Positions 20,351-33,517 are shown, counted from the first letter of the stretch. The stretch is 33,517 nucleotides of DNA from an uncultured bacterium (GCA_964506785.1 CAZDME010000007.1:1-33517), one strand, 5' to 3'. Notes: generated by a model from the letters alone, not told the origin. Program-made: numbers and translations.

Positions 20351-20379
20351 TTGCATTTTTGGTTGATTTTTTATAAACT
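20351..20379 (+). promoter_or_regulatory. Putative sigma70 promoter for the btuFCD-cobO leader
   Basis: TTGCAT (20351-56), 17 bp spacer, TAAACT (20374-79). Confidence 0.45.
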
Positions 20380-20585
20380 GTAAAGTGCTTCTTTGAAAAT
20401 TTGTTTTAAAAGGGAAGCTGGTAAAAGCCAGCACTGCCCCCGCAACTGTGAGTGGAAAAGAGCTTAAGGAGGTTTGGCTTCCTTAAGCTGGTTCAAGTCG
20501 GCCGCCACTGTTTCGTTTGGTCTGAAATTCGGGCTGGCGGGATGGGAAGGCGCCGACAGAAAGCCACAAGTCAGGAGACCTATGG
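20378..20585 (+). ncRNA. Cobalamin riboswitch 1
   Basis: AAAAGGGAA-GCTGG/CCAGC-ACTGCCCCCGCAACTGT ... GCCACTG ... GGGAAGGC ... AGTCAGGAGACCT (B12 box), upstream of B12 ABC transporter genes. Confidence 0.93.
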
Positions 20586-20615
20586 AAGCCTTCGGGGTGA
20601 GAGGGAAAAGGTTTT

Positions 20616-23945: not shown

Positions 23946-23988
23946 ATCACACTTCGCAAGTGTGATTATCACACTTCGTAAGTGTGAT
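23946..23988. repeat. Tandem pair of 21-bp palindromes (ATCACACTT-CGY-AAGTGTGAT) overlapping a putative extended -10 promoter
   Basis: Copies at 23946-66 and 23968-88; TG-a-TAAAAT at 23985-93. Confidence 0.8.
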
Positions 23989-23995
23989 AAAATGT

Positions 23996-24205
23996 AGAGA
24001 ATTGAAGTACAGGGAATACGCTCTCCCCAGAGGGAGAAAACGTAGCTGTCCCCGCAACTGTAAGCGGCTCCGTCCAGGCTGATAGGCTTTCGTTCTCAGC
24101 TTGGGTGGGTAGTTAGCTGGCAGTCACTATTTGCTGAAAGTCAAAAATTTGGCTTCAGGAATGGGAAGGCTGCCAGGAAGTATGCCGCCAGCCAGGAAAC
24201 CTGTT
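23996..24205 (+). ncRNA. Cobalamin riboswitch 2 (variant architecture)
   Basis: AGGGAA-TACG...CGTA-GCTGTCCCCGCAACTGT ... GTCACTA ... GGGAAGGC ... AGCCAGGAAACCTGT, upstream of btuB. Confidence 0.88.
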
Positions 24206-24336
24206 AAATCCTTCGGGGCAGGAGGTGATGAAAATGACTGAATTTACCTAGGCGGACAGCAGCTTCCAGTGAAAAATCTCTACCGACGCGGTAGCGATAG
24301 AAAAAACTGACTTTTTTATATGGAGGGAATAAACAA

Positions 24337-26235
24337 ATGAAAAAGTGTTTATGTTTTACTCTTTTATTTTTGCTTTGTTGCTCTGCCGGTATTGCCAGGG
24401 CAGAGGTATCCAGTTACGACCTTGGCCAGGTAGTTATTAGTGAGTCCAGAATTGAAGAGACTTTGGGACAAATTGGCTCATCTGGCACGGTGATAACCGC
24501 CGAGGAGCTGGAAAAAAGGGGAATCAAAAATGTTAAGGAGGCTCTGAGGGAAGTAGTTAGCATTGATGTGGCTGCTTCCGGAGAAGAAGGAGGGCCGGCT
24601 TCGGTTTTTTTAAGGGGGGCCAATTCCGGACAGAGCCTGGTGATGATTGATGGCGTCAAGGTTTATGACCCTATGTCCACCAATGCCAGCTTTGATTTTG
24701 CCCACCTTACCATAGATAATATTGAGCGGATTGAAATTATTCGCGGCCCGCAAAGTTCTCTTTACGGCTCTGATGCAATTGGCGGTTTAATCAATATCAT
24801 TACCAAAAAAGGAGAAGGAAAGCCCAAAGTAGAGGTCTCTTTTGAAGGGGGTTCCCACCATACCTTTAGCGAAAGAGTGGGCTCCTCGGGCAAACTCAAT
24901 GATTTAGCTTATTCTTTTGTCATCAGCCGCAAAGACACTAAAGGTATATCAAAGGCGGCCAAAAAAGACGGCAATGTAGAAAAAGACAAATATGAAAATA
25001 CATCCGCTTCCATCCGCCTGGATTATGATTTAGATGAGGCCCTTAAGGTAGGGGTAATCAGCCGTTACACCCGGGCTGAATTTGATGTTGATGATGCTGG
25101 CGGCCTTGGAGGAGATGATGAAAACCGGGTGGATAGATTAGACCAATTTTTAGTATCTACCTACCTCACCCATGAGTTTAGCGATTGCTGGCAGCACCAT
25201 CTCAAACTTTCCTGGATGAAAAACGTCCGTCACGATAATGATGACAATAATGGCTCCACCCTTGATTATTTACGAAGCTGGTATAAGGGAGAAAATTTAG
25301 CCGTTGACTGGCAGCATAATTTAACCTTAACCGAATGGGATACAGTGGTGGCCGGGGTGCAATATAACGAAGAGAAAGGCAAGTCATATTATCATTCAGA
25401 GACGGCCTTTGGCCCTTATACAAGCAGCCTTTCGGAAAAAAAGGCGGATAATATCGGCGGTTATATAGAGAATAAACTGAATATTGATGACGCCTTTTTT
25501 AACACCCTGGCGGTGAGGCTTGATGACCATTCCCGTTTTGATGACCACTTCACCTGGCGGGCAACCGGGGCTTATTTATTGGCGGCGGCCACCAAGGTAA
25601 AGGGAAGTTTTGGCACCGGTTATAAGGCGCCGTCTCTTTATCAGCTTTTTTCTTCTTATGGCGATGAGAATTTAAAGCCGGAAGAAAGCGAAGGCTATGA
25701 CCTGGGGATAGAGCAGTCATTCTTTGAAGATAAACTCTTTGGCAGTCTGGTTTATTTCCATAATGATTTTAAAAAGATGATTGATTATGATTTACTTACT
25801 TCTAAATACAAAAATGTTGACTCTGCCGAGACCGAAGGGATAGAGACAGAAATAAGATTTACTCCCGATGAAAGGTTAACGGCCAGGTTCTCTCATACCT
25901 ATCTTGATGCGGACGATACCACGAATAACGAGACGCTTTTAAGAAGGGCCAAGCATAAATTAAATTTAAACCTCGATTATGCCCTTTGTGAGAGGGCTAA
26001 TATTAATTTAAATGTCGGCCATTTCGTCAAGCGCTATGATAAATCCGGCTTCCCGGCGGCGCTGGTAGAATTGAAAGATTACACCAAGGTGGATTTAGCC
26101 GCCTCCTTTGACCTCAACGAAAATGTTGAGCTTTCCCTCCGGGCGGAGAATTTGTTGGATGAGGATTATGAAGAAGTTAAGGGCTACGGCACTAAGGGCC
26201 GCTCTTTTTACGGAGGTATCAAGGTAGTATTTTAG
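24337..26235 (+). CDS. btuB: TonB-dependent cobalamin receptor
   Basis: Signal peptide (ARA-E), TonB-box-like QVVIS, plug motif IERIEIIRGPQSSLYGSDAIGGLINIITKK, C-terminal ENLLDEDY...GRSFYGGIKVVF; B12 riboswitch upstream. Confidence 0.9.
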   Translation: MKKCLCFTLLFLLCCSAGIARAEVSSYDLGQVVISESRIEETLGQIGSSGTVITAEELEKRGIKNVKEALREVVSIDVAASGEEGGPASVFLRGANSGQSLVMIDGVKVYDPMSTNASFDFAHLTIDNIERIEIIRGPQSSLYGSDAIGGLINIITKKGEGKPKVEVSFEGGSHHTFSERVGSSGKLNDLAYSFVISRKDTKGISKAAKKDGNVEKDKYENTSASIRLDYDLDEALKVGVISRYTRAEFDVDDAGGLGGDDENRVDRLDQFLVSTYLTHEFSDCWQHHLKLSWMKNVRHDNDDNNGSTLDYLRSWYKGENLAVDWQHNLTLTEWDTVVAGVQYNEEKGKSYYHSETAFGPYTSSLSEKKADNIGGYIENKLNIDDAFFNTLAVRLDDHSRFDDHFTWRATGAYLLAAATKVKGSFGTGYKAPSLYQLFSSYGDENLKPEESEGYDLGIEQSFFEDKLFGSLVYFHNDFKKMIDYDLLTSKYKNVDSAETEGIETEIRFTPDERLTARFSHTYLDADDTTNNETLLRRAKHKLNLNLDYALCERANINLNVGHFVKRYDKSGFPAALVELKDYTKVDLAASFDLNENVELSLRAENLLDEDYEEVKGYGTKGRSFYGGIKVVF

Positions 26236-26392: not shown

Positions 26393-27028
26393 ATGGGACA
26401 GGAGTGGGGAAAGATGGATTCAGATTTTATTGCCAAAAAATTCAGGCAGCACGAGAAAGTCAGGCGCCAGTTTAAGAAACACGGTTATGATATGGACGGC
26501 TCGCGTAAAGAGGTTTTAAAACGGGCCGGCAAAATTGCTGGGCCGGTTTTAGATGTGGGGACCGGCCCGGGCCGGATAGCCTATACCCTGGCGTTAGCCG
26601 GTTATAAAGTAACCAGCGTCGATATATCAGCTCAGGCCCAGGCGATTGCCAGGCTTTATGCCGATAAATTCAAGGTCAGAGAAAAAATCAGATTTTTAAA
26701 AATGGATGCGGAGAAGCTCGATTTCAAGGATAATTCTTTTAAGACGGTAATTTCGGTTAATCTTCTTCACGACGTCAAAAGCCCCAAGAAGGTTATCAAG
26801 GAAATCATCCGGGTCTGCCGGCCGGGGGGGAAAATCGTCATTACCGACCTTAATGAAAAAGGGAAAGATATAGTTAACCGGGTTTACAGAATAAATAAAG
26901 AAATTCACCGGGGAAAGAATTTAAATCTGGATAGGGTCGTAGGGGGCTCTTTAAAAAATAAGGGGATTGTCTTTAAAAAATACGATGGCGGCCCTTTAAC
27001 GATTTTTACCGGGGAAAAACCTTTGTAG
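26393..27028 (+). CDS. Class I SAM-dependent methyltransferase (Methyltransf_11/UbiE-like)
   Basis: VLDVGTGPG, VTSVDIS, DAEKLDFKDNSF, RVCRPGGKIVITD. The start may instead be ATG 26414, which follows a G-rich RBS. Confidence 0.85.
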   Translation: MGQEWGKMDSDFIAKKFRQHEKVRRQFKKHGYDMDGSRKEVLKRAGKIAGPVLDVGTGPGRIAYTLALAGYKVTSVDISAQAQAIARLYADKFKVREKIRFLKMDAEKLDFKDNSFKTVISVNLLHDVKSPKKVIKEIIRVCRPGGKIVITDLNEKGKDIVNRVYRINKEIHRGKNLNLDRVVGGSLKNKGIVFKKYDGGPLTIFTGEKPL

Positions 27029-27046
27029 ATTAAGAAAGGAGAAAAG

Positions 27047-27409
27047 ATGCCCAATATGGTTTTGTATCTTTTATTAGGACTTTTGGCCGGAAGTTTAAGC
27101 GGACTTCTGGGTATTGGCGGGGGGACGATAATTATCCCCGTCTTAGTCTATATGTTTGGTTTCTCCCAGCACCAGGCTCAAGGAACTACCCTGGCTTTAA
27201 TGGTTCCTCCCATTGGATTGCTGGCCGCTTTAAAATACTATCAGAGCGGGAATGTAAATATCCCTATCGCCGTATATATCTGTATCGGGTTTTTCTTAGG
27301 GGGATTTATTGGCGCCGTTTTCGCCCAGCCGGTTCCGGATTTATTTTTAAAAAAAATATTTGGAGTTTTTTTACTGCTGATTGCGCTAAAGATGATTTTA
27401 GGCAAATGA
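27047..27409 (+). CDS. Half-size TauE/SafE (TSUP) family membrane protein
   Basis: GLLAGSLSGLLGIGGGTIIIP...SQHQAQGTTL; about 4 TM segments in 120 aa; AGGAG RBS. Confidence 0.85.
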   Translation: MPNMVLYLLLGLLAGSLSGLLGIGGGTIIIPVLVYMFGFSQHQAQGTTLALMVPPIGLLAALKYYQSGNVNIPIAVYICIGFFLGGFIGAVFAQPVPDLFLKKIFGVFLLLIALKMILGK

Positions 27410-27512
27410 ATTAAGAAGATCCGATTTATAAATTCAAGCTGACTTTAGTCAGACTAAATGGGCTTTAAGCCTACTAACAGCCGCAGATAGCATATATTAT
27501 ATTAAGGGGCCG

Positions 27513-27583
27513 AAAAAAAGCCCAAAAAAAGCTCAAAAAAAAGCGCAGAAAAATTTGACAAAGGGCTGAAAGTATGCTATATT
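27513..27583 (+). promoter_or_regulatory. Strong sigma70 promoter with extended -10 and upstream phased A-tracts
   Basis: A-tracts start at 27513, 27524, 27535 and 27549; TTGACA 27555-60, 17 bp spacer, TG-c-TATATT (-10 at 27578-83). Confidence 0.75.
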
Positions 27584-27611
27584 TATAGTGGAAAAAGAAA
27601 AGAATAGAAAG

Positions 27612-27696
27612 GTCCGAGAAAGGCTAATCCATCGTAAGGTGGAGACGCAAAGCTACGGACCCTTAGCGAAAGCGAAGGGAGGCCGAGTTGCCGAAG
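27612..27696 (+). ncRNA. Cyclic di-GMP-I (GEMM-I) riboswitch 1
   Basis: AAAGGCTAA-TCCATC-GTAA-GGTGGA-GACGCAAAGC...CCCTT..AAGGG..GGCCGAGTTGCCGAA: GNRA-capped P2, GACGCAAA junction and GCCGAA end. Confidence 0.88.
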
Positions 27697-27720
27697 AGAA
27701 AAAGCAGCTCGGTTTTTTTT
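27681..27720 (+). terminator. Intrinsic terminator overlapping aptamer 1 (ON-switch platform)
   Basis: GGCCGAGTTGC pairs with GCAGCTCGGTT and is followed by a T run; the 5' arm is the aptamer's 3' strand. Confidence 0.8.
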
Positions 27721-27799
27721 GTTGAGAAGATGGATATTAGCAAAGCCCAATATAATACAATGATAGACCCTGGAAAGAGCTGAAAAAATTAAATAGAAA

Positions 27800-27886
27800 C
27801 GCCCGATAAAGGCAAATCCGCCGTAAGGCGGGGGCGCAAAACCACGGGCCCTGAGTGCAGCTAAGGGCGGCCGGGCTGCCGAAGCA
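27800..27886 (+). ncRNA. Cyclic di-GMP-I (GEMM-I) riboswitch 2
   Basis: CGATAAAGGCAAA-TCCGCC-GTAA-GGCGGG-GGCGCAAAACCACGGGCCCT..AGGGCGGCCGGGCTGCCGAA. Confidence 0.9.
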
Positions 27887-27917
27887 AAAGAAGCTTGGAT
27901 AACCCGGCTTTTTATTT
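27869..27917 (+). terminator. Intrinsic terminator overlapping aptamer 2 (ON-switch platform)
   Basis: GGCCGGG...CCGAAGC pairs with GCTTGG...CCCGGCT and is followed by TTTTATTT. Confidence 0.75.
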
Positions 27918-27925
27918 AGAAGAAA

Positions 27926-30900
27926 ATGGATAGAGATAAAGAAGAAAGACAGAAGAGAGAGAAAGAGGAAGCCCAAGGACAGACCCCCGATTCTATGGGA
28001 TATCCGATATCCTATAATAAAAAGAATAAAGGGGAGTCTGCAAGCGGGCTGTCTTTATATTTTTCTTCCCGCGGGGTAGAGCCGAAACAAAGGCAAGGCA
28101 GCTCAAAAAGCAATTCTTTATCTGATAATCCAGTAGAAAGTATCAACCTCTGGCAAAGGCATAAGCTAATTCTGAGAATCATTGCCTCGGTCATAATATT
28201 TACTTTTGTACTTACCCAATCAGACATTGTCTGGGCAGTCGATTATTTTAAAAACAAGAAATGGGAGAAGTCTTCTCCCCAGGCAGAACCTGTTCCTTTT
28301 TCTCCTAAGAAAACATCTCCTCTCCCGGCTACTTCCCAAGGGACTGTTCTTGATAAGCAGATTAAAGAGAAAAAAGAAAAGCCCGAGCCGCCCGTTAGCC
28401 CGATTAAGACCCCTTTTAAAAAAAGCAAGCCTCAAACTACCAAATTTTTTGATAAGGAAATTAAACTTCCTTCTAAGGAAGAAATCCAGCCTGAAAGCAA
28501 AACCTATTATGAGGAATCCAGCGGTTTCACTTTCATATTAGATGAAAAGGGGCGGGTTGTCTCGGCCATAGATAAAAAGGGTAATGTTTATAAACGGCAG
28601 AGAGACGGAAAACTCATCCCTTATCAAGGTACCTTCCGGACCGCCCAGGGTAAAAAGGCGGTATTAAAAGAGGGTAAAGTAGTTGAGCTAAGGGCAGTTC
28701 CGGCTAAAGAAGTCGATGAAACCGAAGGTATTAAGGAAAAAATACATGAGAAAGTAATTTCAAAAGATGAGGCGGCCAAAGGAAATAATTTAAAAGAGAG
28801 AATAAACGATAGAGCCGGGGAAATATTTTCTACTCTCCGAAAGACAATAAATAAAACCAAAGAATCATTTAATAACTTCGGCGAGACCTTATCTGAAAAA
28901 AGGAAAAAATTTGTTTCTACTCTGGGAATAGATAAGGCCAAGGAGGTTTTTGCCAATTTCGGCATAAAGAAAGCGGCTAATTGGCTTAAAGAGAAAGGGC
29001 TTTTTGCCATTAACTGTGCCACCCAGGCTTTAAGCACCCTTTTTGATTTCCTCAAGGTTCAGGTAAGTAAAGAGGAAATTGCCACGACAGTCATTTTAAT
29101 TGATAGTTTTTTGGGCGTTGTAACTTCGAGTTCTACCGGACAAATCTCCACCTCTCTTTATGCGATGATAAAGGCTGCGGCCGCCCAGGATATTAAATTA
29201 TACGCAGTTGAAACCAATTTTACGCAGTTAAAAGAAACTGAAGAACCGGTTATTGCCCATGTCGGCGGCAATCACTATGTGCTGGTTACCTCGGCCGGTG
29301 ATGACGGAGTAACCGTAATTGATAATGGAGAGGAAATTAAAATTTCTAAAGAAGAATTTAATTCTCAGTGGGGCGGATATATTTTAAGCACCCGGGCCCC
29401 GCCCGAAGGAGAAATTAGAGTATTAACTCCTGAAGAAACGAAAGGGATAAAAGGAGCTAATTTTTTCTCTGATTATGTCTCCTCTCAAAACAAACCTCCT
29501 GTTCATGATTTCTCCAATGCAAACAAACCTCCTGTTCATGATTTCTCCAATGCAAACAAACCTCCTGTTCATGATTTCTCCAATAAAAGTTCCATCTCTT
29601 CCACGCCGATACCTCAGGCGACAGATTTTTCTTCAGTCAGTTCCGAGACTTTACCAAAGCCTACTGTAGGAGATGCTTTGTTAGCTCTCCAACAGGGTGG
29701 AGAAGCTGAGGGTGCTCGTGTTCTTAGAGAAGCCTTGGGATTACCCGCCCAGAGTACAGAACCCTCTGTTGGTACGACGGTTACAGCTCCAACACCTCAG
29801 GCGACAGATTTTTCTTCAGTCAGTTCCGAGACTTTACCAAAGCCTACTGTAGGAGATGCTTTGTTAGCTCTCCAACAGGGTGGAGAAGCTGAGGGTGCTC
29901 GTGTTCTTAGAGAAGCCTTGGGATTACCCGCCCAGAGTACAGAACCCTCTGTTGGTACGACGGTTACAGCTCCAACACCTCAGGCGACAGATTTTTCTTC
30001 AGTCAGTTCCGAGACTTTACCAAAGCCTACTGTAGGAGATGCTTTGTTAGCTCTCCAACAGGGTGGAGAAGCTGAGGGTGCTCGTGTTCTTAGAGAAGCC
30101 TTGGGATTACCCGCCCAGAGTACAGAATCTCCTTATACCCAAACGGACGATATACAAACTTCTTCCGTTCCCGTTCAAACCATCGAAACTATTAATACCG
30201 CTTGTGATGAGAAGATAGCTGACGCATATCAAAGAATGAAAAGTGGGGAAATTAATATTAGGGATTATTTCGATATAAAAGATGAAGCGAAAGATGAAAA
30301 AGATGAAGCACTTAAAGAACTTGGCGATGAGGCCTTAGAAGCCGGTTATTATGACGAGGCTTATGATGCTTACCATGAGATTGGTGTTAAAGAAGGCTTT
30401 GAAATGAAGGAAAAGATTGAATTAACAACGGGTGGAAAATACAGTCCTTTCACTGGGTACTCTGGTCCGGATAATCCTCTTATCAATAACAATCTTGGCG
30501 ATGATTCCTCCTTGGGAAATGATGTTGGGGGTATTTATAAGGAGGCTGTTGAAGGTATTAATACAGGTATTTATTCCCATTCGCCCAATACAGTTACCGA
30601 AACCGTTACTGAAGAAAAAGGTGGAAAGCCAGTTGAGGTTACCAAGGTATATGCAAAGCCTCTCTTGAACCAGCCGCAGGCGGAACCTACCCTCCTCAGA
30701 ACTATTGAAAAAAGTGATAATAATCTCACCGTAACCATTCCCGGTCTAAATTCAGACGGCAATTCTCAAACCGAAGTTTATTCTTATGATTTAGGCGGAG
30801 ATGGCAGTGTTTTCGGAGTTGGAGTTACTCAGGCCGTCAATATTGACGGAACAGACTATCAAACAGTAAGCAACACCTATGACGGTGATTTCAATCCTAC

Positions 30901-33517
30901 AGAATTTAAACATTACTATCTGCCGACAGAAGGAGAAACCACTCCCGGCACATCTCATCTTCAGGAACATTGGCAGTTTGATAATTCAAAAGGGACAGCA
31001 GAGCAAACAGTCTATGAAGAAAACGGTGAGAAAGATTATGAAAATACTTTCGATAGCGCCGGCCGTTTTCTAAATGGCACTGACTATAATGCCCTAGATA
31101 CAGAGGGTGTCCACTCCGGAATCGATGTTTCCGAAACGGTTAGCTGGGGGGGGAATGCCTATCTCCCGGCCGGTATCAATGTACAGTTAATTCAAGGAGA
31201 GGGTGAAGATAAAGGCGAGGTTTTTTATAATGCCGGCTACCAGGATGTTAAAAATGTTGATATCGACATATATGCGGATAACAATACCGGCGGGGGGCCA
31301 CAAGAGGCGGTAATCACCGGAACTAACATTGGAGTATTGCCCGACGGGTCATCTGCCGGAGAAGTATCGGGTTTATTCAACCGGGTGAATCTCGACCCCA
31401 GTCTTTTAAATGAAAATGGCAGCTTGGTAAAAGCAGGCTTTGAGCTTGAAAGCAATACCTACCTGACTGACGATAAAGGAAAGTGGGTAGTAGAAAAATA
31501 TGGGAATAAATACAGCCCTCAGATAGTTGACCACAGGCAAACTGAGTATATTAACGCTGGGCAATTTGATGCCAACGATATGTTTTATGCTCCTGCGGAA
31601 TTAATTTCTACTCCCGAACTTTCAGGGACGGTGAAAATTGAAAGCTCCCTCCATAATGATTACGATGATTCTTTTAAGAAAACCGGTTCAAAGGCAAATG
31701 TTAATGCTCTCGGCAAGGATGTTTTAGGTAGTTCAATAGATATCACCCAGGAGCAAACTACCGGGAATTATAGATATGACCAAAACGATAATCTCCTTAG
31801 TTTTAACCAGGATACAACCATTGAAAATGGGGTGCAGAAGTTAAATTTTGATGAAACAACCACTATTGATTATCAAAAAGGAAGTATTAATACCTCCGGC
31901 ACGATAAAGGGGACCGATATTGACGGGAGCTCCGTTGATGCCGCCATTAACTCAACCACCAATCCAGGAGAAGGAACCTCTTCAACCTTTATCAAGAGCC
32001 AAGAAGGAAGCTCTCCGTTAAATCTTAGTATAATTACCACCCCCACCGCTGATGGCCAGGGAAGCTTTACCCAAACCACCGGCAGCTATAAACAATTAGT
32101 TTTTGATGGCGAGACAAAGAATTATCTGCCACAGTCAGTCTATGTAGATAAAACAGTCACCAGCCAAAGAAAAAAGACAGATGCCGATAACTTTTCTATA
32201 ACCACCGTCACCGAAGGTAACCTCTGGCAGGCAAATTCTTCTGGTGAGAAAATTGAAGGGAATTCGATTCAAACCTTCGATAACACCAACACCAAAAACT
32301 GGACCATTCATAGCCGCGACCCCGTTTCCGGCCAGGCCTTTAGCTATACAATTGAGACAATTGAGGAAGGAAAAGGTAATGCCAAGGATATATTAGGTTT
32401 CGAAAATTCCGCTACCGGAAGCTATAACTTTTCTCAAATAACCGAGGTAAACTGGACCATATACAATGGGTTGGATGAATTAGTTTCTCAATCAAGCACA
32501 ACTTCTCCTAGAGTTGGCACCTTTACCTTTGACACCGGACAGAGTGAGTTGGTTCAGAATATCCAGGGTGAAGGGAATATGTTTGGACAGGCAGGGAGCT
32601 GGGATGAGAATGCTACCCAGACGCTGAGTGATAAGGGTGGAAAAGATATTGAAAGTATCGTCTTTGGCAAAGATAGTACCAACTACTTGAATGGCGAGGA
32701 TGTATTAGAGATAGATAACAAACTTCTTGGCACCTTCACCTTTACTAACGGCCAGAGTAAGTTAACCCAGAATATCAGCGGTGACGCAGAGATGTATGAT
32801 CAGGCAGGAACCTGGGATGAGAATGCTACCCAGACGCTGAGTGATAAGGGTGGCAAGGAAATTAAAAGTATCGTCTTTGGAGAAGATAGTACCGAGTACT
32901 TAAACGGTAAGGATGTGTTAGAGCTAGATAACAAACTTCTTGGCACTTTTACCTTGAAGACCGGCCAGATTGAGTTGGTTCAGAATATCAAGGGAAAAGG
33001 CAAGATGTATGATCAGACAGGAATCTGGGATGAGAATGCTACCCAGACGCTGAGTGATAAGGGTGGCAAGGAAATTAAAAGTATCGTCTTTGGAGAAGAT
33101 AGTACCGAGTACTTAAACGGTAAGGATGTATTAGAGATAGATAACAAACTTCTTGGCACTTTTACCTTTGATACCGGCCAGAGTAAGTTAGTCCAGAGTC
33201 TCAGCGGTAAAGGAGAGATGTATGGTCAGGCAGGGAGCTGGTGGGCAGGGAGCAGCCAAACGCTGAGCGCGACGAATGAAGAAAATATTAAAAGTATTAA
33301 GTTTGCTAAGGATGGAGCTGATTATTTAAATGAAAATGACGGCAGATTAGAAATAAACAGTCAGACTATAGGGGTATTTACTTTCTCTGACCCTCAGAGC
33401 CAATATTCTCAGGATTTGAGTGGGTCGGATATACTAGATGGGAAATCCGGTGTTTGGTCTGAAGGTAGTACCCAAACTATTTTTTCTACAAACGGAGAAA
33501 AGATTAATTCTGTTTCC
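27926..33517 (+). CDS. Giant secreted/surface protein, 5' part (at least 1864 aa): signal/TM segment, peptidase C39 domain with cis double-glycine-type motif, and tandem repeats
   Basis: Translated by hand in frame 2: in-frame TAG at 27917-19, ATG at 27926 (alternative 27995), and no stop codon up to the window end, which is why the track omits it. Segments: LILRIIASVIIFTFVLTQSDIVWA (28166-28237); INCATQAL (Cys 29015), IAHVGGNHYVLV (His 29273), VTVIDNG (Asp 29321), EEFNSQWGGYIL; LTPEETKGIKGA (29423-29458). Confidence 0.9.
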   Translation, partial: MDRDKEERQKREKEEAQGQTPDSMGYPISYNKKNKGESASGLSLYFSSRGVEPKQRQGSSKSNSLSDNPVESINLWQRHKLILRIIASVIIFTFVLTQSDIVWAVDYFKNKKWEKSSPQAEPVPFSPKKTSPLPATSQGTVLDKQIKEKKEKPEPPVSPIKTPFKKSKPQTTKFFDKEIKLPSKEEIQPESKTYYEESSGFTFILDEKGRVVSAIDKKGNVYKRQRDGKLIPYQGTFRTAQGKKAVLKEGKVVELRAVPAKEVDETEGIKEKIHEKVISKDEAAKGNNLKERINDRAGEIFSTLRKTINKTKESFNNFGETLSEKRKKFVSTLGIDKAKEVFANFGIKKAANWLKEKGLFAINCATQALSTLFDFLKVQVSKEEIATTVILIDSFLGVVTSSSTGQISTSLYAMIKAAAAQDIKLYAVETNFTQLKETEEPVIAHVGGNHYVLVTSAGDDGVTVIDNGEEIKISKEEFNSQWGGYILSTRAPPEGEIRVLTPEETKGIKGANFFSDYVSSQNKPPVHDFSNANKPPVHDFSNANKPPVHDFSNKSSISSTPIPQATDFSSVSSETLPKPTVGDALLALQQGGEAEGARVLREALGLPAQSTEPSVGTTVTAPTPQATDFSSVSSETLPKPTVGDALLALQQGGEAEGARVLREALGLPAQSTEPSVGTTVTAPTPQATDFSSVSSETLPKPTVGDALLALQQGGEAEGARVLREALGLPAQSTESPYTQTDDIQTSSVPVQTIETINTACDEKIADAYQRMKSGEINIRDYFDIKDEAKDEKDEALKELGDEALEAGYYDEAYDAYHEIGVKEGFEMKEKIELTTGGKYSPFTGYSGPDNPLINNNLGDDSSLGNDVGGIYKEAVEGINTGIYSHSPNTVTETVTEEKGGKPVEVTKVYAKPLLNQPQAEPTLLRTIEKSDNNLTVTIPGLNSDGNSQTEVYSYDLGGDGSVFGVGVTQAVNIDGTDYQTVSNTYDGDFNPTEFKHYYLPTEGETTPGTSHLQEHWQFDNSKGTAEQTVYEENGEKDYENTFDSAGRFLNGTDYNALDTEGVHSGIDVSETVSWGGNAYLPAGINVQLIQGEGEDKGEVFYNAGYQDVKNVDIDIYADNNTGGGPQEAVITGTNIGVLPDGSSAGEVSGLFNRVNLDPSLLNENGSLVKAGFELESNTYLTDDKGKWVVEKYGNKYSPQIVDHRQTEYINAGQFDANDMFYAPAELISTPELSGTVKIESSLHNDYDDSFKKTGSKANVNALGKDVLGSSIDITQEQTTGNYRYDQNDNLLSFNQDTTIENGVQKLNFDETTTIDYQKGSINTSGTIKGTDIDGSSVDAAINSTTNPGEGTSSTFIKSQEGSSPLNLSIITTPTADGQGSFTQTTGSYKQLVFDGETKNYLPQSVYVDKTVTSQRKKTDADNFSITTVTEGNLWQANSSGEKIEGNSIQTFDNTNTKNWTIHSRDPVSGQAFSYTIETIEEGKGNAKDILGFENSATGSYNFSQITEVNWTIYNGLDELVSQSSTTSPRVGTFTFDTGQSELVQNIQGEGNMFGQAGSWDENATQTLSDKGGKDIESIVFGKDSTNYLNGEDVLEIDNKLLGTFTFTNGQSKLTQNISGDAEMYDQAGTWDENATQTLSDKGGKEIKSIVFGEDSTEYLNGKDVLELDNKLLGTFTLKTGQIELVQNIKGKGKMYDQTGIWDENATQTLSDKGGKEIKSIVFGEDSTEYLNGKDVLEIDNKLLGTFTFDTGQSKLVQSLSGKGEMYGQAGSWWAGSSQTLSATNEENIKSIKFAKDGADYLNENDGRLEINSQTIGVFTFSDPQSQYSQDLSGSDILDGKSGVWSEGSTQTIFSTNGEKINSVS
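29489..29584 (+). repeat. 33-bp in-frame tandem repeat x~3 (NKPPVHDFSNA)
   Basis: Identical units at 29489, 29522 and 29555. Confidence 0.95.
29612..30127 (+). repeat. 183-bp (61 aa) in-frame tandem repeat x2.8, copies identical
   Basis: Units at 29612, 29795 and 29978: PQATDFSSVSSETLPKPTVGDALLALQQGGEAEGARVLREALGLPAQSTEPSVGTTVTAPT. Confidence 0.95.
32516..33517 (+). repeat. 213-bp (71 aa) in-frame diverged tandem repeat, at least 4.7 copies, running to the window end
   Basis: Units at 32516, 32729, 32942, 33155 and 33371. First unit: GTFTFDTGQSELVQNIQGEGNMFGQAGSWDENATQTLSDKGGKDIESIVFGKDSTNYLNGEDVLEIDNKLL. Confidence 0.93.

Follow-up and report, generated by a model that had tools for sequence, protein, structure and literature searches.

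Control of a very large surface protein by c-di-GMP is described for LapA/LapG/LapD (PMC3032545), in which the second messenger decides deployment of the protein and cleavage close to its N-terminus falls to a cysteine protease; there the control acts after translation, by way of the LapD receptor, LapG is a separate protein of another family, and LapA leaves the cell by type I secretion. For C. difficile, a cyclic dinucleotide riboswitch is described that turns on surface proteins, the adhesins CD2831 and CD3246, whose fate is set by a specific releasing protease (PMC6200980, PMC6447587). Tandem c-di-GMP-I riboswitches have been counted as 347 doublets and 12 triplets (PMC9481103), and the triple tandem Bc3-5 of Bacillus thuringiensis is reported to consist of complete aptamer and terminator units in series, each acting alone (PMC4759541); a more digital response is expected from arrays of this kind (PMC4759541; PMC9481103). 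Giant and long proteins of Omnitrophota are described as carrying a signal peptide and then an N-terminal C39 domain, which their authors proposed to cleave the protein (10.1101/2023.11.21.568195; 10.64898/2026.06.07.730766). A precedent for such processing is the very large exported, CdiA-like protein StbD, in which an internal C39 domain is reported to cut its own chain (10.64898/2026.05.07.723447).

The sequence-only reading of the DNA considered here had named no characterised system with the same combination of features. That claim is correct only in part, since tandem riboswitches are common and c-di-GMP adhesin/protease circuits and N-terminal C39 domains on Omnitrophota giants are known; in the literature we found neither riboswitch control nor a cis cut site for such long C39 proteins.

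The window is one entire contig of 33,517 nucleotides (GCA_964506785.1 CAZDME010000007.1) from an uncultured bacterium, and the gene-control region and the long frame (P0001) were studied at positions 27513–33517 (Table 1). The genome is 1.38 Mb in size and holds 15 c-di-GMP-I-type aptamers, mostly ahead of exported-protein genes, in 13 riboswitch-controlled leaders, the P0001 leader among them. The taxonomy assigns it to a phylum of only three species, which lends no support to membership of Omnitrophota, though the relatives of P0001 are mostly in MAGs titled Omnitrophota. The analysis shows matches in sequence and structure, an arrangement that is conserved and a motif that is enriched; ligand binding, export, cleavage and role are inferred. 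We favour, with confidence somewhat above even, the explanation that a second messenger licenses this gene, whose long product is exported and processes itself.

Table 1. Positions of the features discussed, counted from the first nucleotide of the window
Feature	Position (nt)	Strand	Basis and details
A-rich repeats, 11-12 nt, GCCCAAAAAAA x about 4	27509..27553	+	Tandem Repeats Finder and sequence; adjoin the -35 hexamer upstream
Sigma-70-type promoter	27555..27583	+	TTGACA-17 nt-TATATT with TG ahead of -10; 11/12 matches
c-di-GMP-I aptamer 1, complete	27613..27696	+	RF01051 64.7 bits, RF03167 60.6 bits
Intrinsic terminator 1	27683..27720	+	9-bp core stem 27683-27691/27704-27712, 12-nt loop, T8 at 27713-27720
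c-di-GMP-I aptamer 2, complete	27802..27884	+	RF03167 72.4 bits, RF01051 65.0 bits
Intrinsic terminator 2	27869..27918	+	interrupted stem 27869-27885/27893-27909, then TTTTTATTT
Frame P0001, 1864 codons, 3' end open at contig end	27926..33517	+	ATG 27926; in-frame TAG 27917 upstream
Predicted hydrophobic export signal, residues 76-104	28151..28237	+	sequence; type W..K/R-hydrophobic-..VWA|VD
Lys-rich region (18% K), residues 105-345, GNVYK-type repeats	28238..28960	+	sequence composition
C39 double-glycine-type cysteine peptidase, residues 345-495	28958..29410	+	Pfam PF03412, E 2.5e-13, 50.5 bits vs cut-off 22
Double-glycine-leader-like motif LTPEETKGIKGA, residues 500-511	29423..29458	+	pattern search; predicted scissile bond Ala511|Asn512
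Perfect tandem repeats	29488..30127	+	Tandem Repeats Finder; 33 bp x2.9 at 29488-29584, 183 bp x2.8 at 29611-30127
71-aa unit x4.7, residues 1530-1864, off contig end	32513..33517	+	repeat analysis

The C39 domain and the leader-like motif behind it

P0001 holds a single C39 domain. The Pfam alignment spans only profile positions 41-129, so that the catalytic Cys364 (nt 29015-29017) is assigned from the family alignment and the structural model. His450 is encoded at nt 29273-29275, and the third catalytic residue is probably Asp466. Across 13 sequences, N363-C364-A365 and H450 do not vary. In the AF2 model of the domain (pLDDT 88.7), which has a papain-like fold, the Cys lies at a helix N-terminus and the His at a strand start. 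The top Foldseek match of this model is 6MPZ (E 2e-7), a double-glycine motif protease solved together with a leader peptide, with 6MPZ, PCAT1 and ComA ranging from 2e-7 to 4e-5, and a PDB profile search matched PCAT1 and LahT150.

The strict 12-residue leader pattern matches once in the 1864 residues of P0001, directly behind the domain. Across the 151 matched proteins, 100 of 167 strict-pattern occurrences fall within -10 to +40 aa of the C39 end, and the looser [IVLMF]xG[AGS] follows the domain by no more than 36 aa in 128 of 158 C39 instances (143 proteins), as against 5993 of 31600 control windows (19%). At positions that the motif search left free, Leu is found at -12 (70%), Ser/Thr at -11 (57%) and Glu/Gln at -8 (72%), echoing LSXXELXXIXGG, which we take to be the leader consensus. 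G510 is invariant in alignment A1, and the AF2 model gives block 499-508 a pLDDT of 97. The P0001 motif deviates in having Thr at -7 instead of a hydrophobic residue and Ala at -1. The motif is missing after 30 of the 158 instances, and in multi-C39 proteins it is usually found behind the first C39 only. Many distant members of the family have a hydrophobic or Gly/Trp-rich stretch behind the G[AS] site that resembles membrane-active peptides.

Docking of the C39 domain against residues 496-525 gave an ipSAE of 0.57 (best of three controls, 0.01), a pass that the test rates as weak support and that may merely reproduce a like complex, 6MPZ, which is already solved. Of 157 solved complexes, 116 reach the docking mark, as do 2 of 215 mismatched pairs; at ipSAE ≤0.60, only 18 of the 157 reach it, and so do both passing mismatches. 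The runs share at least 65% of contacts, with a partner pLDDT of at least 58.

C39 peptidases cut behind a Gly-Gly/Ala/Ser leader motif, and these observations are consistent with self-cleavage of P0001 after Ala511, as predicted from the motif. The C39 domain would bind residues 500-511 and cut after Gly510-Ala511, separating a pro-region of ~400 aa, made of the Lys-rich repeats and the peptidase, from a passenger of at least 1353 aa; we put the chances of this step at about even. Of the earlier claim that the protein is matured by its own protease, the conserved leader-like motif directly behind the C39 domain speaks for it, and cleavage itself keeps the standing of a prediction.

It is also conceivable that P0001 is not cut by its own C39 domain, which would then act in trans on other double-glycine substrates or, as a toxin, on target-cell proteins, or would be a non-catalytic, HlyB-like binding module. 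Tox-PL-C39 is listed among polymorphic-toxin domains (PMC3482391), the StbD C39 toxin is reported to cleave Gly-Gly motifs in GyrB/ParE (10.64898/2026.05.07.723447), the Foldseek matches of the C39 model also include the HlyB C39-like 3ZUA and CdiA-CT 8SSK, and a distant relative, P0002, carries RHS repeats. However, the invariance of Cys and His across the close family makes an inactive binding module unlikely, and the domain sits near the N-terminus, behind the signal and away from the C-terminal position of a toxin. The leader-like motif follows it in 81% of instances, far above the control frequency. On balance we regard an explanation without self-cutting as unlikely, though cutting in trans and self-cutting do not exclude each other and both can hold together.

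Export signal, repeats and passenger

The domain order first read from the DNA is borne out: a signal, a Lys-rich region, the C39 domain and a hydrophilic, repeat-laden remainder rich in Gly, Thr, Ser, Asn, Asp and Glu. For residues 76-104 the prediction is a Sec signal, which signal peptidase may cut after Ala104, and the N-termini of homologues carry a matching motif, MLDWQNKKWIKVIA...AWAxDF. Export through this signal, which is conserved across the family, is somewhat more likely than not as a step in the mechanism. A functioning signal would place a thiol protease outside the cytoplasm, which counts against the model. The GNVYK-type repeats are common to P0001 and a riboswitch-controlled 480-aa paralogue on contig C33. 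Behind the peptidase, the copies of the 33-bp and 183-bp repeats are 100% identical, and a further repeat (213 bp x3.4) is 84% identical; the copy number of the two perfect repeats is uncertain in short-read assemblies, and contigs of four runs break here.

Residues 760-1864 have no match in Pfam, NCBIfam, the homologues or the Atlas. Searches of the 1864 assembled residues (Pfam, NCBIfam) gave neither a toxin nor an immunity domain, no RTX or LapG-type domain was seen in P0001 (Pfam), and no SecA-like domain in its assembled part; the only SecA_DEAD match in the genome is in a 956-aa frame. The region after the C39 domain differs between lineages and is not conserved. Self-cutting, with chances about even, would release a passenger of 1353 aa or more that evolves fast. 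Two descriptions of the protein in the sequence-only reading do not carry over. It had been called giant, and the assembled part is 1864 aa, with the closest relatives in the search library at 1961-3237 aa and one, shown complete, at 2029 aa. An adhesin or host-contact role had also been proposed, for which the matchless residues 760-1864 offer no footing; that the passenger works on the cell surface, to adhere or to make contact with other cells, is a tentative suggestion only.

A different role would be that of a polymorphic-toxin-like effector and no adhesin, the C39 domain freeing a toxic or membrane-active C-terminal portion encoded past the end of the contig. Polymorphic toxins are marked by a toxin domain at the C-terminus and an immunity gene next to it. 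The membrane-active-peptide-like residues of distant family members, the lack of passenger conservation between lineages and the position of the P0001 3' end beyond the contig fit this role. We think it rather improbable, given that P0001 and its close relatives have at least 1353 aa of hydrophilic repeats after the site, and no short peptide, and that the assembled part is free of recognisable toxin and immunity domains.

The riboswitch leader, its ligand and the frame

The promoter in Table 1 is the best of three promoter-like sites in 27000-28600, a count which by itself is non-significant since shuffles average 2.5, and its position is correct for the leader. At L029, an orthologous locus, TTGACA-17-TATAGT occupies the equivalent relative position, and the A-rich repeats may play the part of an UP-element-like A-tract. 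Transcription would very probably begin here and yield some 335 nt of leader RNA. For the fold of the 341-nt leader z is -5.87, and none of 100 shuffles is equally stable. In both units the terminator 5' arm lies inside its own aptamer, with a U-run after each. As the 3' half of each aptamer is common to the intrinsic terminator, both are, with high likelihood, ON switches. Without ligand, the 3' half of the aptamer would pair downstream to form the terminator; with c-di-GMP bound, the aptamer would retain this strand and RNA polymerase would read through. Two such independent riboswitches in series would be two checkpoints that both have to be passed, hence a low leak and a steep response. 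The sequence-only reading thus fares well in the control region: its near-consensus promoter and its two GEMM-I aptamers overlapping terminators agree with the matches in Table 1, and transcriptional ON control by c-di-GMP is favoured by the model matches, the canonical contact bases, the aptamer/terminator overlap and four GGDEF genes.

The arrangement recurs elsewhere. In G002, which belongs to another genus of the same small phylum, a promoter, two aptamers and two terminators precede a 43%-identical orthologue. Among MLDWQ-type homologues with the 5' end present, which are Omnitrophota-type, one aptamer with a terminator lies 30-80 nt before the start in 13 of 14 loci (6/7 GTDB and 7/7 metagenome; L035 and L067 probably represent a single sequence). 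L033, with an MLDWQ-type N-terminus, gave no aptamer match at E<=1. A second subfamily (MIAESQKPKY...) has an aptamer 650-770 nt upstream in six of the eight loci with at least 800 nt upstream. None was found within the 814-846 nt upstream of L050 and L059. The design with the terminator 5' arm inside the aptamer recurs in 14 homologous loci. Aptamers upstream of long C39 frames, which the earlier reading had suggested looking for, are found, and the riboswitch-gene pairing is conserved.

Both aptamers pass the RF01051 model, at slightly under twice its gathering score of 35. The best-scoring clan member and top Rfam label for both is the c-di-GMP-I-GGC variant RF03167 (gathering score 59). 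The name of this variant presumably refers to G replacing A at the middle ligand-contact position, where its model consensus has G, and A47 is the intercalating base of the c-di-GMP-I aptamer. Membership in the variant was considered and rejected: though the scores pass gathering, A and not G follows the (A/G)CGC motif in 15 of 15 aptamers of the genome. By Rfam alignment positions, the window aptamers have G at the G20 equivalent, A after ACGC/GCGC and C in UGCC, where the correspondence of alignment columns to Vc2 numbering is putative. G20 and C92 are described as reading the two guanines of c-di-GMP, and a G20 RNA as binding c-di-GMP at pM and cGAMP at 10 uM (PMC6140456). A at position 20 is the change reported in cGAMP riboswitches, and it renders Vc2 bispecific (PMC6140456). 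c-di-GMP is accordingly the predicted, and in our judgement probable, ligand of both window riboswitches.

That the switches sense 3'3'-cGAMP, or the ligand of the GGC variant class, would agree with the RF03167 label and with the cGAMP-riboswitch-like A at the G20 equivalent in 11 of 12 readable aptamers of MLDWQ-type homologues (PMC6140456). We consider it improbable for the window, whose aptamers carry G there and A instead of G at the position that defines the variant, score well with RF01051 and occur in a genome that encodes GGDEF cyclases, four in all, as well as an HD_5 (HD-GYP-type) protein behind another riboswitch. c-di-GMP remains the preferred ligand.

The uninterrupted 5.6-kb frame first reported is upheld. 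It runs stop-free over 5592 nt, and a check for frameshifts and stops against contigs from four public runs, assemblies rather than raw reads, which break at repeats and of which one run may be the source sample, gave 0 indels and 2 single-base differences across 27513-33517. One public contig extends 3927 nt past the 3' end of the window. An assembly artefact or a decaying gene is very improbable: the contig terminates inside a repeat array and its perfect repeats leave the copy number uncertain, but the frame has no stop and no indels in the contigs of the four runs, metagenome contig L047 encodes an identical protein over 187 compared residues, and the family is widespread, with an orthologue in G002.

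Comparison with known systems

The locus may represent a widespread, cargo-borne form of double-glycine export logic, a broader proposal that we offer as speculative. Signal, C39 domain and leader helix would form a self-removing N-terminal module, and a riboswitch would license a hypervariable passenger in small-genome, probably cell-associated bacteria, with the specificity base switched between G20 (c-di-GMP) here and A20 (cGAMP or bispecific) in Omnitrophota-type homologues.

Compared with Bc3-5, the P0001 locus lies in a 1.38-Mb genome of a three-species phylum and has a different gene family under its control. In C. difficile the protease is reportedly a metalloprotease of its own under opposite regulation, with adhesins said to be sortase substrates, whereas P0001 holds a cysteine peptidase and a predicted site inside the regulated protein itself. 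P0001 has the N-terminal signal and C39 domain of the Omnitrophota giants (Archaeovorin type, West-Roberts preprint). The Archaeovorin type is further marked by >10,000 aa, many TM helices and a SecA-DEAD-like domain, and P0001 is known to 1864 aa of a frame open at its 3' end; with its closest relatives it is in the range of two to three thousand aa rather than tens of thousands, and its assembled part is without SecA-like domains. StbD is described as having its C39 domain at the C-terminus, as a toxin with topoisomerases among its targets, and as being processed in the linker upstream of the peptidase, in contrast to the N-terminal C39 domain of P0001 with its predicted site downstream. Finally, P0001 and its family share with the C39 domains of PCAT/AMS exporters (PCAT1 4RY2, ComA 3K8U, LahT150 6MPZ) the fold, the Cys/His pair and a leader consensus of L -12, S/T -11, E -8, I -4 and G -2. 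Unlike these exporters, P0001 has no ABC domain across 1864 aa, and its match to NCBIfam TIGR03796 is confined to the peptidase part (19.9 bits vs cut-off 853). Its peptidase, with the invariant motif N-C-A, is fused to the cargo instead of an ABC transporter, and the "leader" lies C-terminal to the peptidase.

Promoter, tandem aptamers and terminators

The sequence-only reading of this locus had described a near-consensus promoter followed by two GEMM-I aptamers, each overlapping a terminator, and as the table shows, the consensus scan recovers the promoter, Rfam the aptamers and inspection of the sequence the terminators. In both units, the 5′ arm of the terminator hairpin is the 3′ part of its aptamer, and because of this shared strand the aptamer and terminator are mutually exclusive. 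Ligand binding should promote read-through, which makes both elements predicted ON switches. The leader (27590-27930) folds with z = -5.87, much more stably than its own shuffles. An internal promoter past the terminators was looked for as well, and a consensus scan finds no further promoter-like site on the + strand past the terminators and ahead of the start codon.

Features of the locus, of the encoded protein P0001 and of the remainder of the window
Feature	Position	Strand	Basis or remark
Promoter TTGACA-17-TATATT, extended -10 TG	27555-27583	+	consensus scan, 11/12 matches
c-di-GMP-I clan aptamer 1	27613-27696	+	Rfam
Terminator 1 hairpin	27683-27691 pairs with 27704-27712	+	sequence; followed by T8
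c-di-GMP-I clan aptamer 2	27802-27884	+	Rfam
Terminator 2 hairpin	27869-27885 pairs with 27893-27909	+	sequence; followed by TTTTTATTT
P0001 frame, 1864 codons	27926-33517	+	ATG at 27926 after in-frame TAG; open at 3′ contig end
Tandem repeat, 33 bp x2.9	29488-29584		100% identical, in frame
Tandem repeat, 183 bp x2.8	29611-30127		100% identical, in frame
Charged N-terminal stretch	residues 1-75
W-x-basic-hydrophobic segment	residues 76-104		ends VWA/VD (slash, boundary)
Lys-rich region (18% Lys)	residues 105-345		GNVYK-type repeats common to riboswitch-controlled 480-aa paralogue on contig C33
Peptidase_C39	residues 345-495		Pfam E 2.5e-13; sole Pfam family above curated cut-off
Cobalamin riboswitch	20374-20601		68.1 bits
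Cobalamin riboswitch	23973-24222		48.5 bits
TonB-dependent receptor gene	24337-26235

Both aptamers score well with RF01051, the c-di-GMP-I riboswitch (64.7 and 65.0 bits vs a gathering score of 35). The top Rfam label in each case is the variant RF03167, 'c-di-GMP-I-GGC'. In the Rfam alignments, the base directly after the ACGC/GCGC motif is A in both window aptamers, whereas it is G in the RF03167 consensus; A occupies the same column in 15/15 aptamers of the source genome (G000). Both window aptamers carry a G at the last unpaired position preceding the G-C pairs and a C within UGCC, which are the likely equivalents of G20 and C92 in the riboswitch Vc2. GGDEF is found in 4 proteins of the source genome, HD_5 (HD-GYP-type) in one and EAL in none, making an endogenous c-di-GMP signal plausible. 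According to PMC6140456, the two guanines of c-di-GMP are read by G20 and C92 of Vc2, and the G20 RNA has pM affinity for c-di-GMP, against 10 uM for cGAMP.

The open frame, its peptidase and a predicted cut site

The source genome comprises 1.38 Mb in 112 contigs and is 91% complete, with the window being one whole contig (C7, 33,517 nt). The frame had been described as uninterrupted, and a comparison of 27513-33517 with public contigs from 4 runs agrees, revealing 0 insertions or deletions and 2 single-base differences in what are assembled contigs rather than raw reads, one run possibly being the source sample. The contigs from all 4 runs break at the internal repeats of P0001, and the identity of these repeats indicates either recent expansion or collapsed copies. 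One public contig (run X5) extends 3927 nt past 33517. No continuation of P0001 was found in the source genome: the final 300 nt share no overlap with the end of any other contig, and tblastn with P0001 matches only N-terminal paralogues on contigs C33 and C62. The last 54 nt of unique sequence have 0 exact matches among metagenome contigs, and metagenome locus L047, whose protein is identical over the 187 residues compared, stops short of the end of the window. The frames on contigs C39 (4531 aa) and C53 (2994 aa) were considered as the continuation and rejected, as in both cases the product is a multi-enzyme protein for which no similarity to P0001 was detected. Each of these contigs (13,596 and 8,983 nt, respectively) is entirely one frame, open at both ends; the former encodes HAD, GNAT, Glu/Leu dehydrogenase and LOG-like domains, and the latter RelA/SpoT and HD_4 domains. 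They are pieces of at least one giant multi-enzyme gene.

The C39 peptidase proposed to lie within the frame is borne out by the Pfam match, the conserved catalytic residues and the fold, and the source genome has no other C39 match. Residues 100-560, searched exhaustively without a profile, matched 490 proteins at E<=1e-3, vs 2 matches only in a word-index search with residues 180-520. The best nine homologues are 1961-3237 aa in length and contain 1-3 C39 domains each, with no non-C39 Pfam family at E<=1e-4. Asn363-Cys364-Ala365, His450 and Gly510 are invariant in a 13-sequence alignment. In the AlphaFold2 model of residues 339-525 (mean pLDDT 88.7), Cys364 starts a helix and His450 starts a strand, as in papain-like enzymes. 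Its top PDB match is 6MPZ, the double-glycine motif protease LahT150 with leader peptide (E 2e-7); PCAT1 and ComA are among the other best matches, and a sequence-profile search of the PDB also matches PCAT1 and LahT150. Only two cysteines, Cys364 and Cys760, occur in all 1864 aa.

In P0001, the C39 domain is directly followed by ...RVLTPEETKGIKGA|NFF. We sampled the 36 residues past each of 158 C39 instances, from 143 retrieved proteins with enough sequence, and found [IVLMF]xG[AGS] in 128/158 of these stretches, that is, in ~80% of the family domains, vs 19% (5993/31,600) of windows drawn at random from these proteins. Anchoring on the site reveals a strong bias at positions that were free in the search: Leu at -12 (70%), Ser/Thr at -11 (57%), Glu/Gln at -8 (72%) and Lys at -6 (47%). 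The motif has the shape of LSXXELXXIXGG, the double-glycine leader consensus. A strict 12-residue pattern matches P0001 a single time, at residues 500-511, and in 151 hit proteins 100/167 occurrences are within -10..+40 residues of the C39 domain end. Residues 499-508 have a pLDDT of 97 in the AlphaFold2 model.

Docking of the C39 domain with residues 496-525 gives an ipSAE of 0.57, which is graded as weak support; of 3 controls, the best reaches 0.01. The mark is reached by 116/157 solved complexes and 2/215 mismatches, but at <=0.60 by only 18/157 solved complexes and both passing mismatches. As a similar complex has already been solved, the pass may reflect memory. Contact agreement between runs is >=65% and partner pLDDT >=58. 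Three observations run against a cut site: the motif is absent from 30/158 C39 instances, the second and third C39 domains of one protein mostly lack it, and position -7 in P0001 is Thr. Overall, the data are consistent with a predicted self-cleavage, in which the P0001 peptidase would bind the leader-like helix behind itself and cut after Gly510-Ala511.

LLALQQGG, which occurs in three perfect 61-aa repeats, was rejected as a source of extra cut sites since it has no hydrophobic residue at -4 and no acidic residue at -8; the strict 12-residue pattern is not matched in these repeats. In many distant family members (e.g., P0002, P0032, P0040 and P0047), a hydrophobic or Trp/Gly-rich stretch is seen right past the predicted cut at the G[AS] site. 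This stretch resembles a membrane-active peptide, and the same C39-plus-site module may free very different cargos.

The passenger, the C-terminal remainder of P0001, gives little in database searches. Pfam finds MliC alone, below threshold (19.1 bits vs a cut-off of 22), NCBIfam has no match, the ESM Atlas has no usable match, and a homologue search with residues 760-1864 among near-length proteins returns 0 matches. The AlphaFold2 model of two 71-aa repeats (pLDDT 41.4) is unusable. An adhesin is at most a candidate reading of the passenger.

Riboswitches at homologous loci and across the source genome

The phylum of the source genome contains three species in one family by taxonomy. In G002, from another genus, a 4.2-kb contig has TTGACA-17-TATAGT together with two terminators and two aptamers, which score 70.3 and 70.5 bits. 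The orthologue encoded there is 43% identical to P0001, shares its signal, its repeats and its C39 domain, and has the motif as ...LSAEETKKITGS|; the query used to find it has no match in G001, a further genome. Since the 13-row alignment is too divergent for locus scanning, a 5-row alignment was used, yielding 17 loci in GTDB species genomes (10 in MAGs titled Omnitrophota or Omnitrophica) and 30 loci in metagenome contigs. Homologues starting M(L/I)(D/G/N)WQxKKW(I/V)KV...AWAxDF, the MLDWQ group, are preceded at a distance of 30-80 nt by a c-di-GMP-I aptamer with its terminator in 6/7 GTDB and 7/7 metagenome loci, or 13/14 in all, although the loci are not all independent, as L035 and L067 are probably one sequence. 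The exception, L033, has no aptamer at E<=1. In the subfamily MIAESQKPKY..., a weaker aptamer match (37-40 bits) is located 650-770 nt upstream, ahead of a small ORF, in 6/8 loci having >=800 nt of upstream sequence, and is absent from L050 and L059. At the other loci, the 5′ end is missing or the homologue falls in a distant branch. Predicted cyclic-dinucleotide ON riboswitches are conserved ahead of these genes in at least three subfamilies.

The G20-equivalent is A in 11/12 readable aptamers of the MLDWQ group (L034, L035, L037, L040, L043, L052, L055, L060, L064, L068 and L070), and G in L031, as it is in the window, G002 and L041 aptamers. According to PMC6140456, A at position 20 is a change known from cGAMP riboswitches and renders Vc2 bispecific; in the MLDWQ group it would be a cGAMP-type or bispecific signature. 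Separately, ten loci (L031, L033, L034, L035, L037, L040, L043, L060, L064 and L068) show conserved synteny with a tRNA gene, which precedes the riboswitch or the start of the gene by 350-800 nt.

The source genome contains 15 c-di-GMP-I aptamers in 13 leaders within 1.38 Mb, compared with 0-3 aptamers per genome in 58 genomes of other families, 8-10 in G001 and 4 in G002; this is the densest set in the genome sample examined. The 13 further aptamers are on contigs C1, C2, C4, C10, C17 (x2), C27, C29, C33, C55 (x2), C62 and C84, with the second tandem pair on C55, and almost every one has a terminator behind it into which the 3′ strand of the aptamer can pair. Judging from N-termini, most of the 13 leaders appear to precede exported or membrane proteins. 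The C84 leader precedes a TolC-like outer-membrane protein with an HlyD-type partner, and those on C17 a DUF2341/laminin-G protein of >1512 aa and a glycosyltransferase-AAA-HD_5 group (GT4-AAA-HD_5); other downstream genes encode HIT-pentapeptide and DUF1015 proteins and, for the most part, signal-bearing proteins without a known family. Post-terminator sequence (...TTTTTTAATGAGCCCGTRACTTATGGAGCG...) is alike at C10:15640-15712, C1:50786-50860, C2:51658-51730 and C4:15970-16046, and riboswitch units may have spread along with a flanking repeat module. The window also contains two cobalamin riboswitches, the second of which precedes the TonB-dependent receptor gene; the C-terminal part of such a gene is upstream of the orthologous locus in G002 too.

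Relation to known systems

Among tandem riboswitches, c-di-GMP-I is the commonest class (PMC9481103, PMC12452182). Giant proteins of Omnitrophota have C39 domains near signal peptides at their N-termini, and the preprint describing this suggests that these domains cleave the giant proteins, while calling the cleavage points unknown (10.1101/2023.11.21.568195). A PF03412 architecture cluster of 24 proteins appears in a later preprint (10.64898/2026.06.07.730766). Riboswitches are unmentioned in the text of both preprints and PMC10066038, and c-di-GMP in that of the later preprint and PMC10066038, though the preprint supplements may hold more. Literature pairing riboswitches with Omnitroph* was found only on ComFB. 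On these searches, riboswitch control of the P0001 family and the cis double-glycine site were not found in print.

The riboswitch set of the source genome is a ready list of candidate surface factors, most of its members preceding exported proteins of unknown function. The locus itself bears on the regulation and processing of very long proteins in Omnitrophota and neighbouring uncultured lineages, and it provides two handles that are testable without cultivating the organism, namely the cyclic-dinucleotide signal and the predicted self-cleavage after G510-A511. In other bacteria, c-di-GMP control of large adhesins and of their proteases is established.
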